A stretch of DNA of 64,000 bases, taken from NCBI GenBank assembly GCA_000165345.1, contig CM000436.1, positions 1 through 64,000 on the forward strand, read 5' to 3'. Made by a program: the position numbers and the translations under genes. Positions 40,751-58,063 of the stretch are shown here, one piece after another; the stretch's first letter is position 1; the number at the start of each line of letters is the position of its first letter. The notes under the pieces were generated by a model. It was not told the origin of the DNA. It saw only the letters and a list, made by a program, of their open reading frames with translations, and searched no databases.

Positions 40751-42280
40751 TTACCTCTGAATAAAATCAGGGGGTATTTGTATATATTCTAATCTTAATG
40801 ACTTTAGATAATTTTGAAAATTTGTTTTAATTTCTTCAGAATCTTTAATTAATCCTTTATCAATATGGATATAGTCCAAGAAGTCTAGAAATAAAAACTC
40901 TATAAGCTGGGACTCTTGAGAAATATCTTCCAAAAAAACTTCCACAAGTCTTTCTGTTAGAGCTGGATCCACATTACTAATTTTGTTATGTATTTCTCCC
41001 CACCTAAAGGATGTATTTTTGAATTCTATGAATCTTAAACAGTATAAATGTCTACAAACAAATTGAACCAATTCGTCAGAGATATTGAGATCGAAATCAG
41101 AATTGGAGATATTCATTTTTCCAGTATTACTATTAGAAATCCGGGAAACGTCCAAAGTATACTGCTCATGAAATATCTTTTGGAGTTGAAGATAAGAAAC
41201 AGTTTCACAATGCATTTCTGGTAGCTCTTTGTTGACAGGAAGTCTTCCAAAGTCGTTCAGAAACTTGTAAATCCAACTTAACACTATTTGATATTTTACA
41301 TTAATAGTAGAAAAAGATCTTTTATTTAAAGAAAACTGGCCATTAAAATTACTATACAATTTCTGAGATTCAAGTAATTGAAATATTTGATCTCCAAGAA
41401 GATCTTCAGGATCTGAAAACACCAAATATTGATATCTTTTTGCTTCAATATAATTTGGAAAATCATAATCTTTTAGAATTTGTTCCAAACTATCTTTAAA
41501 TCTCTTTTTGAGATTCTCTCGATCCATCCCAAACTCCGATCCTCGAAACAAACCGGCATTTAACCCAATATAAACCAACAATATTGGAAATGGTATTTTA
41601 GACAAAAAATCATTTAATCCAGATGAGCTATCTTCCAACTCTTTAAAATCAATTTCAGAAGCAAGATTGATTAATGATTCAATTGGCTTAAAAAGCTGAA
41701 GTCCGTGAAGCTTTGCAAGGTTCTTGCTTTCAGCAGAAAGATCAAAAGTTACATACATTTGATTTGTACTAAACACCTGATATTGTCCAAGTTCGCCCCT
41801 TGACTTGAGGCTTATTATAAAACAACTTGAGATTCCTTGACCATTTTTCGCCAAATTGTACACATTTTCAACAATATTACCAGGGAGATTACAACAAACA
41901 ACTACGCTGTACTCTAAAGGATGGGAGTTTAGAGGTTCGTTCATGAGAGTCTCCAAATATTTTTCTGGAGACTCCAATACACATTTAATTCTGATATTAA
42001 CTTGCAGACTTAACAAAAAATCTTTTAGTAGATATATTTTGGGCTGATTTACAATGTTTGTTTTCTCACCATCAAGGCTAAGGCATACACCATAATCTTC
42101 CTCAGTAGCGATTTGGCAGTCCACCAATACTATCTCTCCAATTCCGGAAGATGCTAACGAGATTGCCAATTCTGAGGTTAATATAGAAGACGACCCTAAA
42201 ATTAATATTTTAGAGTTTTTTAAAGCTTCTTCCCCCACTACACCCCATATAAGTCTTTCTCTAGACCTAAATTGGTCCAT
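40751..42280 (-). CDS. NAE1: NEDD8-activating enzyme E1 regulatory subunit (APPBP1/NAE1/ULA1-like), with a ThiF/E1 fold.
   Basis: The N-terminus RERLIWGVVGEEALKNSKILILG...LASSGIGEIVLVD...EEDYG aligns with APPBP1 [25 protein letters not shown]...LPGIGSFTIIDG..GEDAG. At 509 aa it fits APPBP1 rather than the roughly 350-aa SAE1. Confidence 0.65.
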   Translation of the reverse strand: MDQFRSRERLIWGVVGEEALKNSKILILGSSSILTSELAISLASSGIGEIVLVDCQIATEEDYGVCLSLDGEKTNIVNQPKIYLLKDFLLSLQVNIRIKCVLESPEKYLETLMNEPLNSHPLEYSVVVCCNLPGNIVENVYNLAKNGQGISSCFIISLKSRGELGQYQVFSTNQMYVTFDLSAESKNLAKLHGLQLFKPIESLINLASEIDFKELEDSSSGLNDFLSKIPFPILLVYIGLNAGLFRGSEFGMDRENLKKRFKDSLEQILKDYDFPNYIEAKRYQYLVFSDPEDLLGDQIFQLLESQKLYSNFNGQFSLNKRSFSTINVKYQIVLSWIYKFLNDFGRLPVNKELPEMHCETVSYLQLQKIFHEQYTLDVSRISNSNTGKMNISNSDFDLNISDELVQFVCRHLYCLRFIEFKNTSFRWGEIHNKISNVDPALTERLVEVFLEDISQESQLIEFLFLDFLDYIHIDKGLIKDSEEIKTNFQNYLKSLRLEYIQIPPDFIQR

Positions 42281-42538: not shown

Positions 42539-42555
42539 TTGGCGCCGGCGCCAAC
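42539..42555. promoter_or_regulatory. Tandem palindromes TTGGCGCCGGCGCCAAC in the divergent NAE1 / RPC2 promoter region.
   Basis: Two adjacent GGCGCC hexamers forming a 17-nt perfect palindrome between divergently transcribed genes. Confidence 0.5.
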
Positions 42556-42847
42556 ATGTCTTTTTTGCCTTTTAGAGGTAAATCAATTAATAAAGAGAGT
42601 AAAAACAATGTTCTTTTCTTATTCCTTCTAAATTGAAAGAATAGAAAGAATTGAGGAGAGCTACTAACTTTAATTAACGAGATCTTAAATCGCTGGCCTT
42701 TGTTTTTTTTAAGCTCAACTAAGAAGTTTCAATTTTCTAGTTACTATAATAACTAAGATATAGTCAATAAATGAAAAATTGATTGCAAATAGTGAGTATA
42801 TTTTGTCTTGAATATAATATATAATTCATTTGAAAGGAGCTGAAAAA

Positions 42848-45800
42848 ATGTCAGGTGAAAAGAAAGTTAGATTTTCTGATAATGACTTCATTGAAGTGGA
42901 TACAATCCAAGTAAAAGATGAGGAAATGGAGGACTTTCAAAGTAAAGTGGAAGAAGTCGCTAAGCTTGATGGAAACGGTACTAAAATGATGAACATTGAT
43001 GTAAATATGAATTTAGATACGGATTTAGATGATTTAAAAGAGAAGAAAACTTGTCTAATAAATGACACAGAGAAATCATCTTCCCAAGGTCTATTTGATA
43101 CTAAAATGGAGATTGAAGAAAGTAAAAATGATAAGTTGGATGACTTATTGAAACCAGTTAATACTATGAAAGATAAGTGGAGACTTCTTCCATATTTTTT
43201 GAAGACTGAAGGCTTAGTTAAGCACCATATTGATTCCTATAACTACTTTGTGACCACGGAAATACAAAGTATTGTTCGAGCAAATGCTAACCGAATGATC
43301 AGAAGTGACGTGGATCCCTCATTTTTTATAGAGTTCTTGGATGCTAGGGTTGGAATGCCAAAGCTTGAGGAAAATATGATTACTGTTGACTTGACTCCTA
43401 TGATGTGTAGGATGAGAGATATTACTTACGCCGCACCAATCTTTGTAGATGTTGACTATGTAAGGGGAAACACTGTTGTCAGGAAGAAGAACGTAGAGAT
43501 TGGTAGGATTCCTGTTATGTTAAGATCTAAAGTATGTATTTTGCATGGAAAAACTGCAGCTGAAATGGTAAAGCTTAATGAATGTCCTCACGATCCAGGT
43601 GGTTATTTTGTAGTTAAAGGAACAGAAAAGGCTATTTTAATGCAAGAGCAGCTTAGTAAAAATAGAATCATTGTAGAATTAGACAATAAACACAACTATT
43701 GTGCAACAGTTACGTCTACAACTGCTGAAAGTAAAAGCAGAACTCTTGTAGTCTTTAAGAACGGAAAGTTGTATTTACGTCACAATTCATTTTCTGATGA
43801 AATACCTCTCTGTATTGTGCTTAAAGCAATGGGAATTGAAACTGAACAAGAAATATTCTTTATGATTGGAAACGAGCCTCATCACCAAGAAGGAATTATA
43901 AACTCCCTTCAAGAGGTACATCAAGAAGGGATTTTCACTCAGAGACAAGCACTACTTTTTATGTCAAAGAAAGCCAAATCTAAGTTTAAATCAACTTTTG
44001 GCTCTAGTCGAGGTTTTGATAAATCTAATGCGGAAGAAAGTGCTGAGAATTCTGGCTTTACTGAATTTGGAGGCTCAAAAAGCTCATTATGTGGCACTAG
44101 TATTGATGATGTTCTTGAAACCCTAAATAGGGTATTACTTTCACATATTGGAACTATTTATACTGATCTCCATCCAAAAGCCTTATTTCTCTGTTTAATG
44201 GCAAAAAGAGTTTTGGATGCTTCTGAAGATAATTCTCTACTGGATGACAAAGACTATTATGGTAATAAAAGGATTGAATTGGCTGGACAACTTATTTCTA
44301 TCTTATTTGAAGACCTTTTCAAGAGATTTTCAGTTCTTACTAAAAAACAAATCGATCAAACTTTGATTCGTTATTTCCAAACAAGAGATGCCAGTAAAGC
44401 AGGCACAGGAAGAGACGATTCAAACTCGACATATCCTGATTGCTTTAGAAACCTTCCAACTGATATTATTACAAGAGGAATGCAAACTGCTCTTAGCACT
44501 GGAAACTGGTCAATTAAACGTTTTAGAATGGAAAGGAGTGGAATGACACAAGTTCTAACTAGATTTTCATATATCGCATCTCTTGGAATTATGACACGAG
44601 TTGACTCCCAATTTGAAAAGGCTAGAAAGGTTAGTGGTCCTAGAGCTCTACAACCTTCTCAATGGGGAATTTTATGTCCTTGTGATACTCCAGAAGGAGA
44701 ATCTTGTGGATTAGTAAAGAACTTAGCTTTGACTACTCATATTACTACTGATCATTGTCCACAATATCTAACTAGTTTATTATTTACATTAGGAGTTCAA
44801 GATATTTCATCATGTTCATATCTCGACTTTAATACTAAACAATCTGAAAAGTTATCAAACGAAGATTTGAAAAACGAATCTTCTGGAAAGAATAATGTAA
44901 AAAAGCACTATTATGTATCTATTAATGGTTCTCTTTTAGGAGTTCATAGAAAACCTGAGTTACTTGCAAGCCAGCTCAGAAATTTGAGAAGAAAAGGGTT
45001 TATTGGACAATTTGTATCCATTTTTTGTAATCATATCCATTCGTCTGTTCAGATTGCCACAGATGGAGGAAGACTTTGTAGGCCCTTGATTATCGTAGAT
45101 CAAGGAGTTCCAAGATTAAAAGAAGAACATATTGAACAGTTAAAAAGAGGTGAAATCATTTTTAGCGATTTTATTTCTCAAGGTATTTTAGAATGGATTG
45201 ATGTAAATGAGGAGAATAACTTATTAATAGCTCTTAGAGATGAAAACTTAACAAATGAGACCACACATTTGGAAATTGATCCTCTTTCAATCTTGGGAGT
45301 TGTTAGTGGATTGATTCCTTATCCAAATCACAATCAGAGTCCAAGAAATACTTATCAATGTGCTATGGGAAAGCAAGTTATGGGTTCTGTAGGATTTAAT
45401 CAATTCCTGCGTTGTGATTCTGTTTTGTATCTTTTGGTTTACCCTCAAAAACCTCTTTGCAAAACTAGAACTATAGAAATGATTAACTTTGAGCAACTTC
45501 CTGCAGGTCAAAACTCTTCTGTTGCTGTAATGAGTTTTGCGGGCTATGATATTGAAGATGCTATTGTTATGAACAAAGCTTCTGTAGATAGAGGGTTTGC
45601 TAGATGTTTTGTAATGAAAAGACAAACAATAGAATTGCAAAAACTACCAAATGGACTCTCGGAAAGAGTAGTTAGACCTATATCAGTAGGATCAGGCAAT
45701 ACTGGAAATAGACGATTTTCATTTAAAAATGATAGTATATTAGATAATGATGGAGTATGTAATGTAGGTGTACAAGTTTCTGAGGATGATATTATCGTTA

Positions 45801-46711
45801 ATAAAATGTCTCCTATAAATACAAGAGAATATGTTGGAGACCCATCTCAATTTGACCTTTCTGAATATAAACCTTCTCCAGTAAAATATAAAGGTCCAAC
45901 ATCATCTTATATAGATAGAGTTATCCTTACTGAAAATGCAGATGGAAACCAAATCTACAAAGTAATTACTAGACAAACAAGAAGACCAGAACTTGGTGAC
46001 AAATTTAGTTCCAGACATGGACAAAAAGGAGTTGTTGGATTAATCATTTCTCAAGAGGATCTTCCATTTTCAGAAACTGGATGGTGTCCAGATCTTATTA
46101 TGAATCCTCATGGTTTCCCATCTAGAATGACTGTTGGAAAGTTACTTGAACTTATTTCTAGCAAAGCAAGTGTCTTAGATGGAAATTATAGATATGGTAC
46201 AGCCTTTGGAGGCACTCCTCTTGAAGAATCTGCTAAATGTTTAGTAGAACATGGATTCCATTATTCTGGAAAGGAGTATCTTACATCAGGAACCACAGGA
46301 GAAGCAATTGAAGCCTATATTTTTGTTGGGCCTATTTATTACCAAAAATTGAAACATATGGTTCTCGATAAAATGCATGCAAGAGGAAGGGGTCCTAGAC
46401 AAATTCTTACCAGACAACCCACTGAAGGAAGATCTAAGGATGGAGGACTACGTCTTGGTGAAATGGAAAGAGATTGTTTAGTAGCTTATGGAGCAAGCAA
46501 CCTTCTAATTGAAAGACTTATGTTGAATTCAGACGTTTTCGAAACTAATGTATGTAATCAATGTGGTCTTTTTGGTTATAATAATTACTGTCACTATTGT
46601 AAAAGTTCTCAAGATGTGTCTATTATTAGACTTCCTTATGCATGTAAGCTATTGTTCCAAGAATTACAAGCAATGAATGTTTGTCCTAGAATAAGAACTA
46701 GTATTAAATAA
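42848..46711 (+). CDS. RPC2: DNA-directed RNA polymerase III second-largest subunit (RPC2/Ret1-like).
   Basis: Shows GDKFSSRHGQKGV and GEMERDCLVAYGASNLLIERLMLNSDVFE. The C-terminal zinc ribbon CNQCGLFGYNNYCHYCKSS...IRLPYACKLLFQELQAMNV matches the yeast Ret1 tail (CDKCGLMGYSGWCTTCKS...IPYAAKLLFQELLSMNI) better than RPB2 or RPA135. The ORF track starts at a TTG at 42830; the first ATG is at 42848. Confidence 0.85.
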   Translation: MSGEKKVRFSDNDFIEVDTIQVKDEEMEDFQSKVEEVAKLDGNGTKMMNIDVNMNLDTDLDDLKEKKTCLINDTEKSSSQGLFDTKMEIEESKNDKLDDLLKPVNTMKDKWRLLPYFLKTEGLVKHHIDSYNYFVTTEIQSIVRANANRMIRSDVDPSFFIEFLDARVGMPKLEENMITVDLTPMMCRMRDITYAAPIFVDVDYVRGNTVVRKKNVEIGRIPVMLRSKVCILHGKTAAEMVKLNECPHDPGGYFVVKGTEKAILMQEQLSKNRIIVELDNKHNYCATVTSTTAESKSRTLVVFKNGKLYLRHNSFSDEIPLCIVLKAMGIETEQEIFFMIGNEPHHQEGIINSLQEVHQEGIFTQRQALLFMSKKAKSKFKSTFGSSRGFDKSNAEESAENSGFTEFGGSKSSLCGTSIDDVLETLNRVLLSHIGTIYTDLHPKALFLCLMAKRVLDASEDNSLLDDKDYYGNKRIELAGQLISILFEDLFKRFSVLTKKQIDQTLIRYFQTRDASKAGTGRDDSNSTYPDCFRNLPTDIITRGMQTALSTGNWSIKRFRMERSGMTQVLTRFSYIASLGIMTRVDSQFEKARKVSGPRALQPSQWGILCPCDTPEGESCGLVKNLALTTHITTDHCPQYLTSLLFTLGVQDISSCSYLDFNTKQSEKLSNEDLKNESSGKNNVKKHYYVSINGSLLGVHRKPELLASQLRNLRRKGFIGQFVSIFCNHIHSSVQIATDGGRLCRPLIIVDQGVPRLKEEHIEQLKRGEIIFSDFISQGILEWIDVNEENNLLIALRDENLTNETTHLEIDPLSILGVVSGLIPYPNHNQSPRNTYQCAMGKQVMGSVGFNQFLRCDSVLYLLVYPQKPLCKTRTIEMINFEQLPAGQNSSVAVMSFAGYDIEDAIVMNKASVDRGFARCFVMKRQTIELQKLPNGLSERVVRPISVGSGNTGNRRFSFKNDSILDNDGVCNVGVQVSEDDIIVNKMSPINTREYVGDPSQFDLSEYKPSPVKYKGPTSSYIDRVILTENADGNQIYKVITRQTRRPELGDKFSSRHGQKGVVGLIISQEDLPFSETGWCPDLIMNPHGFPSRMTVGKLLELISSKASVLDGNYRYGTAFGGTPLEESAKCLVEHGFHYSGKEYLTSGTTGEAIEAYIFVGPIYYQKLKHMVLDKMHARGRGPRQILTRQPTEGRSKDGGLRLGEMERDCLVAYGASNLLIERLMLNSDVFETNVCNQCGLFGYNNYCHYCKSSQDVSIIRLPYACKLLFQELQAMNVCPRIRTSIK

Positions 46712-54582: not shown

Positions 54583-57096
54583 TTAGAATTTCTGAAAGTT
54601 TTTTACAAAGTCAAAGAAATAGTTTCTCTTTAAGTTTAAATTTTGGATTTCCTTCATTTGGTCAGGAGAAAGGGAGAACTCTTCCTGATCTGAAAGCTCC
54701 AAATCTGCCTCAATTGCCTTATTCAACATCCAGCTATTGTTTCTTTTTTTTCTTAGAATAGAGTGTCCAAGACCTTCAATTTCATTTGCAAGTTCTAAAC
54801 GTTGCTGTACATGCGATACTTGTGATGATAGTAAACCTTGAAGCTCATCTGGAATTCCGACGGATTCAAAGCTTAAGGAAATTGCTTTAAGATGTTTGGA
54901 ATATGCAGGAACATCTTTTGGAGTACAGAAAAGAACACATTCGCCTTGTCTGGAAGCTCTAGCAGTTCTTCCACTTCTGTGAATCATAAGTGAGATATTT
55001 CTTGGGGCTTGGAGGTGGACAACAACATCTACTTCTGGGATATCAAGACCTCTTGCTAAGACGTCTGTACATATAAGAATAGCAGAGTTAGATGATTTAA
55101 ACGATTCAATAGCTTGAATTCTCTGTTTTTGAGAGAGATTGCCATGTATTCCAATGATCTTGAGTGATTTTTCGTTACAAGCCTTACTACACTTTTTTCT
55201 TTTTTTTGGGCCAGGAAGCTCCTTTTCATGAGTATCTTTGCAAACAAGAACCAAAGATAAAAGAGGAGCTAGTCTATATACATATGATATGGAATTGACA
55301 AAGACTAGTATTTTCCCATTTTCAATATAACTTGGACAGAGAGAGCATTGCTGATTTCCTGCCTTGGTATCCCATATTGGAGCAAAGTATTTGAGTAGGT
55401 ATAAAACTAATCTCATTTCAAGTTCATCGCTTTCACATTTAATCATTGAAATTTTGAGTCCTTTTGGAAGCTGTATAATTCCATTTGGTTGGCTCATAGT
55501 TTGGACCTGCTCTCCATTTTCATCCAATAAAGACTTTGTCTTGAACCTGGATAAATCTATTATGAATAGCTGATTCTCCCTAAGTTTTACATACTGCATA
55601 ATACTCTGCATTGCTTTATTGGAATTTTCTGGCATTATAGATGTAACTTTATTATCTTGAATATCTTTTTTACCTTTTGATTGTTTACCTGTGTTTCTTG
55701 TATTAAGCTTAGAAAATCTTGGATGTAAGTGATTTGGCAGAGTCAGAGTAGCTGAAAATAAGTAGTTTTGAATCTTCCTGGGAGTTTTACTCTCCTTATT
55801 ATCAGAATAAATAAGCTGAAGAATTTGCTTTAATTCTCTAAAATGTCCCTGTTCGATTAGTCTATCAGCTTCGTCAAGTACCAAGAATCTTAGTTCATCA
55901 ATTGATAACGTTGTATTAACTTGTTTTCTAGAAGCTTCTCTTTCATCTCCAAACAAAGTTTCGTTCTCGTATTCCCCAAAAATTAAAGCAGATAGCCTTC
56001 CGGGGGTTCCAACAGCAACTTGTACTCTATTTGTTGCTATTAACCTTTCCTGTTTCTCTAAAGAAAGTCCTCCAACAAAAGCATGAATACCAAGACCTGT
56101 ATATTTACCTAAAGCTCTAAGATGATCCCTTACTTGAATGGCAAGTTCTCTACTTGGAAGTACAATGAGTGCTTGAAGAGCTTGATCAGATTTAAACGAA
56201 TTATTCTTTGAAACTTTACTATCTATATTTGACACACTTGTCATTTTAAATCCCATTCTCTCAAGTTCTTTGAAGCCTTCATCTTCCTCTATACCTAATT
56301 GGATATCTGGTTCTTCAAAGCCATCATCATATTCCTTAAGAGATTTTTGTTCAAGCTTTTCTCTTCTTCTTTGAGCTGAAAACATTATGTTTGCAATAAT
56401 TGGAATTCCATACGCTAAAGTTTTACCAGAACCTGTTTCTGCTGCTCCGACTATATCTTTTCTATCCCTGATTGCAGGAACCAAACATGCAGCTTGAATT
56501 GGGGTTGGGTTTAAAAACCCTAGCTCTGATAATCCTTTTAAAATGCTTGGGTGGATAACTAAATCTGGGGACTTTAGCTCTTCCATTTCTTCAGAAGATA
56601 ATTTTTTGCTCATGTTTTTAGTAGATTCATCAATAATATTTGTCCAGTTTGATAATTTTTGCTTTAAGTCATAGTATTCTTCCCAATATTCTTCTGGATC
56701 GAGGATCTGGTCATTCTGTTTAGAACTTATTTTCTGAGTCTTATTATTAATTTCTTTGTTTTCAATTAATGATTTTTTAGCTTTTTTCTGCTTCTTCGTA
56801 ATACTATCTGAGAGCTCAACCTCGCCTTTATTAATGTCTTTATTGGCTCTCTTTTTAGATTTCTTAACTTTACTAGGCTTCTCAACCCCCATTTTACTTT
56901 TATTAAAGTCAGAGTTTGATGTTAAGTTATTATCCTTTCCCAACTCATAAAAAGAAATATCAGTTGGGTCTGAAATTTCTTCAATCATGCTTACTCCATA
57001 TTTTGTGAATTCCGACAATAAGTCACTGCCTAACTCTACCTCCTTCCATTTCAGTCCTTTAGCACCCCCTCGGCTCTTATTCTTTGCAGACTTCAT
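54583..57096 (-). CDS. DEAD-box ATP-dependent RNA helicase, DDX24/Mak5-like. It has a Lys-rich N-terminal extension and a large insertion between motifs I and Ia.
   Basis: Motifs present: Q motif TPIQ, I AETGSGKT, Ia PSRELAIQV, Ib GTPGRL, II VLDEADRL, III SAT, V ARGLDIPEVD, VI HRSGRTARA. Confidence 0.85.
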   Translation of the reverse strand: MKSAKNKSRGGAKGLKWKEVELGSDLLSEFTKYGVSMIEEISDPTDISFYELGKDNNLTSNSDFNKSKMGVEKPSKVKKSKKRANKDINKGEVELSDSITKKQKKAKKSLIENKEINNKTQKISSKQNDQILDPEEYWEEYYDLKQKLSNWTNIIDESTKNMSKKLSSEEMEELKSPDLVIHPSILKGLSELGFLNPTPIQAACLVPAIRDRKDIVGAAETGSGKTLAYGIPIIANIMFSAQRRREKLEQKSLKEYDDGFEEPDIQLGIEEDEGFKELERMGFKMTSVSNIDSKVSKNNSFKSDQALQALIVLPSRELAIQVRDHLRALGKYTGLGIHAFVGGLSLEKQERLIATNRVQVAVGTPGRLSALIFGEYENETLFGDEREASRKQVNTTLSIDELRFLVLDEADRLIEQGHFRELKQILQLIYSDNKESKTPRKIQNYLFSATLTLPNHLHPRFSKLNTRNTGKQSKGKKDIQDNKVTSIMPENSNKAMQSIMQYVKLRENQLFIIDLSRFKTKSLLDENGEQVQTMSQPNGIIQLPKGLKISMIKCESDELEMRLVLYLLKYFAPIWDTKAGNQQCSLCPSYIENGKILVFVNSISYVYRLAPLLSLVLVCKDTHEKELPGPKKRKKCSKACNEKSLKIIGIHGNLSQKQRIQAIESFKSSNSAILICTDVLARGLDIPEVDVVVHLQAPRNISLMIHRSGRTARASRQGECVLFCTPKDVPAYSKHLKAISLSFESVGIPDELQGLLSSQVSHVQQRLELANEIEGLGHSILRKKRNNSWMLNKAIEADLELSDQEEFSLSPDQMKEIQNLNLKRNYFFDFVKNFQKF

Positions 57097-57215
57097 CTTT
57101 AATAATTAAAGGGATGGCTAATCCATCTAACAATTCTTTTGGTTCTATGCTTCCACTATTTTCCTCTTCTTTTCTTGACATTTTATAATTAAATCTATTT
57201 TTCGGTACCAATTCA

Positions 57216-57239
57216 GGCGCCAATAGTTGTGGCGCCTGT
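57216..57239. promoter_or_regulatory. Paired GGCGCC palindromes (AGGCGCCAATAGTTGTGGCGCCTG) between the DEAD-box helicase start and the U1 snRNA gene.
   Basis: Two GGCGCC sites 8 nt apart, about 120 bp upstream of the helicase ATG and about 60-85 bp upstream of the U1 5' end. Confidence 0.45.
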
Positions 57240-57299
57240 CGATGCCCATCATAAAACTGTGCTCATTTAAAATGAATAGAATTCTGAGGTTGGAAGTTT

Positions 57300-57460
57300 A
57301 AACTTACCTGGCCGGCGCTCGGGGTCGCTCAAGAATGACCCTGTCGTAATCCTGAGCAGGGCATTGCACTCCGCTGTCTGTGAAGGGTTATGGATTGATC
57401 AATGATCAATTCCAACGGCGAAATTTCTGGCAGCGGCGACCACGCCGGTGGTCGCCAACC
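57300..57460 (+). ncRNA. U1: U1 small nuclear RNA gene.
   Basis: The 5' end AAACTTACCTGG is complementary to the GTAAGT 5' splice site (human U1 is AUACUUACCUG). It has the U1A-binding loop CATTGCAC within GGCATTGCACTCCG and an Sm site AATTTCTGG at 57422-57430. A perfect 9-bp terminal stem GGCGACCAC-GCCG-GTGGTCGCC follows. The region is a GC-rich island in an AT-rich intergenic context. Confidence 0.75.
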
Positions 57461-57648
57461 AATAAACCAATGTATCACTAAGACCTAAGCTTTTGTGCCT
57501 TTTTGTCCCTAGTATGTTTGCGTTGTTGTAGGTACCTGCTTTTAGTAGTTTTCTGCCCTTGGTGGCGTGCGGTGGACGGTAGACTACAGTTGGGGGAGGG
57601 GGTAGGAAGGTTAGTCTATACTACTTACTACGGGGCTAAGCTACTTCA

Positions 57649-58063
57649 CTAGTCGTTCTTTTTGTCAGATGGCGAGTCCGAATTCTCGTCGGATGATTTA
57701 TTGGCTTCATTGAGGAACTCCTCGAACTTTGGAATGTACCTGTTGGGAAAACAAAAGAAGTAAATAATCACAGGGAATGAGTCTATCGAAGAACTTGCAG
57801 AAAATGAGAGAAACTTACCAGAAGATTAGTCCTGAAAAGATAACCAATAACACGGCCAAAGATAATAAGAGTTTAAGATGCAACATCTCATTGTATTGAT
57901 ACGCAATATAAGACGTTGTGAAAGAAACTAATGCCAAAAATAAACAAGTAAAATTGAGAATCTTAAGAATGAGTTTCTGGTCAATACCAAATACAGCCTC
58001 GATGAATTCTGCGACTCCACTGTCGCTAACGGAGTTTGTCTGTTTCTGCTCGCTTACTTCCAT
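57649..58063 (-). CDS. Small two-TM membrane protein of about 111 aa, spliced. Exon 1 is 58063..57829, the intron is 57828..57740 (GTAAGT...CCAACAG) and exon 2 is 57739..57649. Possibly signal peptidase complex subunit 1 (SPCS1/SPC12)-like.
   Basis: The ORF ends at a TAA that overlaps a canonical GTAAGT donor. Splicing to the AG at 57740 continues the frame as ...GLIFW|YIPKFEEFLNEANKSSDENSDSPSDKKND*. The topology and the (D)QKL..I motif resemble SPCS1. Confidence 0.45.

Follow-up and report, generated by a model that had tools for sequence, protein, structure and literature searches.

Positions 57300-57458 (+) of the window, by which we mean the whole stretch of 64,000 nucleotides that was analysed (GenBank assembly GCA_000165345.1, contig CM000436.1, positions 1 to 64,000 of the forward strand), are almost certainly a functional, single-copy U1 small nuclear RNA (snRNA) gene of Cryptosporidium parvum. 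The Rfam U1 model (RF00003) matches this interval on the plus strand with 85.9 bits (E 7.2e-20) over model positions 1-166/166, and the ends of the gene given here are those of the Rfam alignment. An earlier note on this DNA, made from the letters alone, had placed a U1 snRNA gene at 57300-57460 and had named an Infernal search with the Rfam U1 model as the way to check it. The score obtained lies well over the gathering score of 69.5 bits, the whole model is covered, and the assignment is further borne out by covariation over ten species. RF00003 was the sole Rfam family over threshold across the 64 kb, and there is no counter-evidence to the identity of the locus as U1. In a permissive Rfam scan of the same 64 kb, just two further matches were returned, both sub-threshold and away from U1, namely ylbH (28 bits vs a cut-off of 50) and mir-633 (27 vs 90), and these were taken as chance.

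The structure of the RNA was deduced from a ten-species alignment, from which RNAalifold, used without guidance, gives the canonical U1 architecture: a free 5' arm, helix H, stem-loops 1-3, a free Sm site and stem-loop 4. The 5' arm AAACTTACCTG (57300..57310, +; RNA AAACUUACCUG), the part of the molecule that pairs with the 5' splice site, is unpaired in the consensus fold and invariant in the 10 species, and its portion ACUUACCUG at 57302-57310 is complementary to the GUAAGU 5' splice site. The arm is followed by a four-way junction (57311..57419) with helix H (57311-57314 with 57416-57419), stem-loop 1 (57315-57347), stem-loop 2 (57348-57389) and stem-loop 3 (57391-57414). In U1, the loop of stem-loop 1 binds U1-70K and that of stem-loop 2 binds U1A, and the Sm ring is built on the Sm site. 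The loop of stem-loop 1, GCUCAAGAAU, is identical to the Rfam consensus GAUCAAGAAG (GAUCAaGAAG) at 8/10 positions in the cmscan alignment, and judged by its sequence it is of the U1-70K-binding type. The loop of stem-loop 2 contains the U1A-type motif CATTGCAC (RNA CAUUGCAC; 57362-57369), and the AUUGCAC that characterizes this type is found in it; two species carry CACUGCAC instead of CAUUGCAC. The Sm site was read from the sequence as AAAUUUCUGG (57421..57430) and is single-stranded in the consensus fold. Its core AATTTCTGG (57422-57430), unpaired between helix H and stem-loop 4, agrees as RNA AAUUUCUGG with the Sm-site consensus AAUUUNUGG, and 9/10 positions of the site are invariant, one G of the final GG being T in C. 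andersoni. Stem-loop 4, the terminal hairpin (57435..57456), is a perfect 9-bp stem formed by GGCGACCAC (57435-57443) and GTGGTCGCC (57448-57456) around the 4-nt loop GCCG. The U1A loop, Sm site and perfect terminal hairpin reported in the earlier note are thus each present where it had put them, and the four-stem folding that it had suggested as a check is obtained in the RNAalifold consensus.

As a single sequence, the RNA has a minimum free energy of -65.9 kcal/mol (z = -3.95), and 0/200 shuffles were equally stable. In this single-sequence fold, 57311-57315 pairs with part of the Sm site and helix H is not formed; the fold was dropped in favour of the comparative structure, in which the Sm site stays free. 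Compared with eukaryotic U1 as modelled in RF00003, the C. parvum RNA has the 5' arm, helix H, stem-loops 1-4, both loop types and the Sm site in common with it, and differs in having A rather than U at position 2, in 2/10 positions of the loop of stem-loop 1, and in its length of 159 nt against the 166 positions of the model.

The ten loci were fetched via helicase orthologues and come from C. parvum, chipmunk genotype I, C. ubiquitum, C. canis, C. felis, C. bovis, C. ryanae, C. andersoni and two Logan assemblies. Gene order is identical in all of them (a 1,100-aa ORF, a small 111-aa gene and the helicase), and a full-length U1 over the Rfam gathering score is found in 10/10 (76.3-86.4 bits), always between the helicase and the small gene and on the strand opposite to the helicase. 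Mean column identity is 92% in the U1 body vs 42% in the upstream flank and 47% in the downstream flank. On the consensus structure, 99.1% of the pair cells of the alignment are paired, and six pairs are compensatory, with three each in stem-loops 3 and 4. None of 500 shuffles came up to the alignment in pairing, in compensatory counts or in covariation score, and pairing falls to 27-51% in slid controls, in which the 3' partners were moved by 1-3 columns. Covariation support is limited to stem-loops 3 and 4, because helices H, 1 and 2 hardly vary. With protein identity in the genus down to 49%, this invariance is itself a sign of constraint.

The divergent neighbour of U1 is a Mak5/DDX24-type DEAD-box helicase gene (54583..57096, -), an 837-aa ORF with DEAD and Helicase_C domains (PF00270 and PF00271), whose ATG (57096) lies 203 bp from U1 +1 (57300). 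The protein is 100% identical to Mak5 of C. parvum Iowa II and 85-49% identical in the other Cryptosporidium species; the helicase of C. andersoni is the one at 49%, yet the syntenic U1 is kept there. A 34-codon upstream ORF (MSRKEEENSG...; 57077-57181, -) overlaps the helicase ATG out of frame. Its ATG (ATGTCAAG) is conserved in 7/10 species and the length of its peptide is not, and the block around it, TTGACATTTT...ATTAAATCTATTTTTCGGTAC, is conserved; 57077-57181 (-) may be a regulatory uORF or the 5' UTR/TSS region of the helicase. Downstream of the helicase in C. felis (locus L005, 6700-10448) there are a 220-aa ORF, a protein kinase and an Rpb4-like gene where other species carry a 2,484-aa ORF, so that a synteny break of C. 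felis adjoins the conserved U1-helicase pair.

The convergent neighbour (57649..58063, -) encodes a 111-aa protein with two hydrophobic segments, for which no Pfam family scored above cut-off. The gene is annotated in 8 genomes as 111 residues over 415 nt, and a clean splice could be reconstructed for it, with a 79-nt intron at 57740-57818 and the donor G/GTAAGTTT. Between the 3' end of U1 and the stop codon of this gene, the spacer 57480-57650 matches no Rfam family, with E values of up to 10 allowed. The idea that this spacer holds a second structured RNA was considered and rejected (fold z +0.86 on the plus and +2.07 on the minus strand, poor conservation and no Rfam match), and the spacer is probably the 3' UTR of the neighbour. 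It is G/T-rich on the plus strand and lies inside the most G+C-rich 1-kb bin of the window (57001-58000, 41.6%).

The genome has a G+C content of about 30-35% and long uninterrupted ORFs. The first ~36 bases of the window are unrelated sequence; they are followed, up to about position 1600, by ~1.56 kb of a degenerate, error-ridden CCTAAA repeat, the complement of TTTAGG. The telomere repeats at the start, together with sequence identical to that of C. parvum, indicate that the window is a C. parvum chromosome end, and U1 lies ~57 kb from the telomere. Bases 1-36 align to the pUC19 polylinker (GCTTGC-TGCCTGC-GGTCGACTCT...), with a local score of 39 against 12.5 +/- 2.4 (maximum 24) for shuffles, and positions 1-1600 look like a vector or adaptor remnant followed by noisy long-read sequence at the end of the assembly. 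In addition, two islands with a G+C content of 17-20% in a background of ~31% (3001-5000 and 12001-14000), both without a long ORF, were seen in the subtelomeric intergenic DNA.

Within the U1 snRNP, the 5' arm recognises introns at their start: by what is established for U1, its portion ACUUACCUG pairs with GUAAGU 5' splice sites, and this sets off spliceosome assembly. That the 5' end of the RNA pairs with the GTAAGT donors of introns in the window had been part of the original description; it holds in at least one confirmed case, the donor of the intron in the 111-aa neighbour. Position 2 of the RNA is A instead of the usual U. The U1 RNAs of Toxoplasma gondii and Plasmodium falciparum carry the same substitution at position 2, with nucleotides 3-11 as in other eukaryotes, and the recognition site matching them is CAG/GTAAGTT (PMC4474610). 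The A at position 2 is therefore an apicomplexan trait and nothing peculiar to this locus. The likeness of these RNAs to AAACUUACCUG of Cryptosporidium is a comparison that covers the 5' arm only. The A can add a pair with U at intron +7. In the window, T follows 15/27 GTAAGT sites, against 35% T overall, and GGTAAGTT is not significantly enriched (4 vs 2.28 expected). The bias toward T at +7 is a weak hint, from counts of letters, at extended pairing with A2. The argument for co-adaptation draws on the few real donors and on these 15/27 sites; it is weak, since the majority of GTAAGT sites are not used in splicing and GGTAAGTT shows no enrichment. Separately, putative introns that begin with GTAAGTT and would link neighbouring open frames were noticed at 62800 (+) and at 40754, 40503 and 31884 (-); these four candidate donors all carry T at intron +7, complementary to A2 of U1.

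The flanks of the gene hold two short elements at nearly fixed distances. On the upstream side, CCATCATAAAACTGTG (57246..57261, +; -54 to -39), a candidate proximal sequence element, has a CCATCAY-N6-GTG core that is invariant and starts exactly at -54 in 10/10 species, while the spacer around it can hardly be aligned; in the spacer of C. andersoni, nothing but this box aligns. The box has one match per locus upstream of U1 and one extra match in the ~100 kb of Cryptosporidium DNA that was fetched, and in the window it has a single exact match. Just downstream of it, the A/T-rich ATTTAAAAT (57265..57273, +; -35 to -27) may be, as a weak inference, a TATA-like element; the region is A/T-rich in most species and its sequence is conserved only partly. 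Beyond the gene, AATAAACCAATGTATCA (57461..57477, +), 3-19 nt past the Rfam 3' end, is a candidate '3' box'. It contains AAT(G/A)TATCA, which is found at +169 to +172 in 10/10 species and nowhere else in the window, and conservation collapses further downstream.

A box that is fixed near -55 and differs between taxa, with or without a TATA-like stretch, and a short element just past the mature 3' end make up the general layout of snRNA-type genes, from which we infer an RNA polymerase II snRNA-type promoter and a 3'-end signal (architecture as summarised in PMC9841428). RNA polymerase II would then transcribe U1 from a compact promoter of this type, whose specific element would be the -54 box, perhaps with the A/T-rich stretch near -30, and AAT(G/A)TATCA just downstream of the gene would direct 3'-end formation. 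Tentatively, as a possibility worth considering more than as an expectation, the -54 box and the element near +170 may be the Cryptosporidium snRNA-gene promoter element (the equivalent of the PSE/USE) and its 3'-end signal. The resemblance to animal and plant snRNA promoters (PSE/USE +/- TATA) and their 3' box is one of layout only, and the -54 box and the 3' element come from phylogenetic footprinting at one gene; since the ten sequences are related, their invariance within the intestinal clade is weaker evidence than it appears. A literature search returned no relevant description of an apicomplexan proximal sequence element. We know of no relationship between the vertebrate PSE and 3' box sequences and the -54 box and 3' element of Cryptosporidium.

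Metagenome contigs were also scanned for CCATCA-N7-GTG with the invariant U2 core 45-75 nt further on. The four matches were set aside as a test of the -54 box: they are U2 genes, almost identical to one another, from an unrelated eukaryote of ordinary GC, and the co-occurrence was put down to chance. These U2 genes (L011-L014; Ga0307513 and Ga0307517) score 113 bits and have a TATATAAA box ~30 nt upstream. A scan of the spacer for bacterial-type promoters and terminators found nothing, a result that has no bearing on a eukaryotic gene.

The divergent spacer between the helicase and U1 carries another conspicuous feature, AGGCGCC-N9-GGCGCCT (57215..57237), in which two E2F-like GGCGCC palindromes occupy 57216-57221 and 57231-57236. 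The earlier note had described a compact bidirectional control region with two GGCGCC palindromes that U1 shares with the helicase gene. The palindromes are there as described and are conserved, and the motif proves to be a generic E2F-like one, not one specific to U1. GGCGCC occurs 7 times in the window vs 0.58 expected (0/100 shuffles reach 7), and 6/7 copies are in divergent intergenic regions of protein-coding genes. An E2F-like motif, 5'-TGGCGCCA-3' with the core [C/G]GCGC[G/C], is the most abundant upstream motif of C. parvum, and an over-representation of such motifs was found upstream of 2,379 genes (PMC3734150); a preprint describes the E2F-like motif as the dominant one in C. parvum open-chromatin peaks, genome-wide (bioRxiv 2025.01.17.633476). 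Both GGCGCC sites fit the palindromic E2F-like core in a divergent intergenic region. They have this core and the divergent-spacer setting in common with the known upstream motif system, as do 6/7 of the window copies, and differ from it in that one of the flanking genes is an snRNA gene and not protein-coding; the sites are putative. Because the pair matches the generic core, it marks an ordinary divergent promoter region and not a U1-specific element. The palindromes are real, conserved and probably functional, judging from their enrichment and conservation, and they are generic; the two sites would probably serve the divergent spacer common to U1 and the Mak5 helicase.

Alternatively, the GGCGCC pair might be the U1 promoter itself, U1 and the helicase being co-regulated via one E2F-driven bidirectional element. 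The sites lie between two divergent genes and are conserved in most species. Moreover, the proximal GGCGCC is nearly fixed relative to the U1 start (at -69 in six loci and at -71 in L009), in contrast to the spacer on the side of the helicase ATG, whose length differs between loci from ~150 to 390 bp. Against this, the motif is a generic one found upstream of thousands of genes (PMC3734150), most of its copies in the window are in spacers between protein-coding genes, and copies are lost or degenerate where the -54 box is present in all ten loci: C. andersoni retains one degenerate copy only (GGCGGT), and L010, C. bovis and C. ryanae have one exact copy each. On these grounds we consider it rather unlikely, though still deserving serious thought, that the pair is the U1 promoter, and the -54 box, by its conservation and spacing, is the leading candidate for a promoter element specific to U1, ahead of the GGCGCC pair. 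A second E2F-like pair was seen as a tandem GGCGCCGGCGCC at 42541-42552, in the spacer between the ORFs 40751-42280 (-) and 42830-46711 (+), where it coincides with the chance sub-threshold match to ylbH.

The same upstream layout could suggest a type-3 (PSE + TATA) promoter at which RNA polymerase III makes the U1 RNA, which we regard as very improbable. A conserved box with an A/T-rich stretch near -30 does resemble type-3 promoters, which can drive either polymerase (PMC9841428), and C. parvum has a TTTT run ~33 nt past the hairpin. However, the downstream T-runs are not conserved, e.g. in C. canis and C. felis, and the 3' element that is conserved is not a T-run. In addition, an Sm site is the mark of snRNAs that are made by RNA polymerase II and are TMG-capped, and one is present here. 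RNA polymerase III is disfavoured because of the Sm site and the lack of conservation of the T-runs, and transcription by RNA polymerase II from an snRNA-type promoter is the reading we retain.

U1 pseudogenes are frequent in animals, and the locus might in principle be a pseudogene or a decaying extra copy rather than a working gene. There is nothing specific in favour of this, and several observations speak against it. The functional motifs are all intact. Column identity is 92% genus-wide, and the compensatory changes preserve pairing in stem-loops 3 and 4. The elements on the promoter side and on the 3' side are kept at fixed distances. In addition, Li, Baptista et al. 2022 (Microb Genom 8:000821, PMC9465071) applied Infernal/Rfam with the gathering cut-off to C. 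parvum IOWA-ATCC and reported precisely one gene for each of U1, U2, U4, U5 and U6; small-RNA-seq in that study retrieved every one of its 55 benchmark ncRNA transcripts, among them U1. A single copy, intact motifs, structure-preserving substitutions and conserved flanks practically exclude a pseudogene. Still less probable is a different Sm-class member of the clan, for example the minor-spliceosome RNA U11, which belongs with U1 to one Rfam clan (CL00005) and has the four-way junction in common with it: the 5' arm reads ACUUACCUG as in U1 and is the complement of GUAAGU, stem-loop 2 has the U1A-type loop CAUUGCAC, and the best and only clan match reported, after clan resolution, is U1 over the full model, so that U11 or any other clan member is excluded.

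The published U1 and the present one agree in organism, method and copy number, and nothing of substance is different. Since that study gives one U1 per genome and a full-length U1 is found here, the locus must be the published C. parvum U1; the 700 nt around it are identical to the C. parvum record CP029787.1. It had been remarked earlier that an snRNA is easily missed by protein-centric annotation. This is true in so far as the protein-only gene calls of the fetched loci list nothing at U1, and it does not hold in so far as the gene was already reported (PMC9465071). The words 'promoter' and 'upstream' have no occurrence in the main text of that paper.

Taken on its own, the locus is an ordinary housekeeping RNA gene that is already published. 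U1 is universal in intron-containing eukaryotes. Only the candidate -54 box and the candidate 3' element, as read from alignment of the ten loci, appear mildly new. The practical gain is a set of precise coordinates and a structure for U1 in this assembly, together with the placing of the GGCGCC pair as a generic E2F-like motif. Meanwhile, the -54 box and the 3' element are candidates for the promoter and 3'-end signals of Cryptosporidium snRNA genes. If this is true, the two elements would be usable to find further small RNA genes transcribed by RNA polymerase II, and they could drive guide RNAs or other small RNAs in transgenic lines of this genetically difficult parasite.
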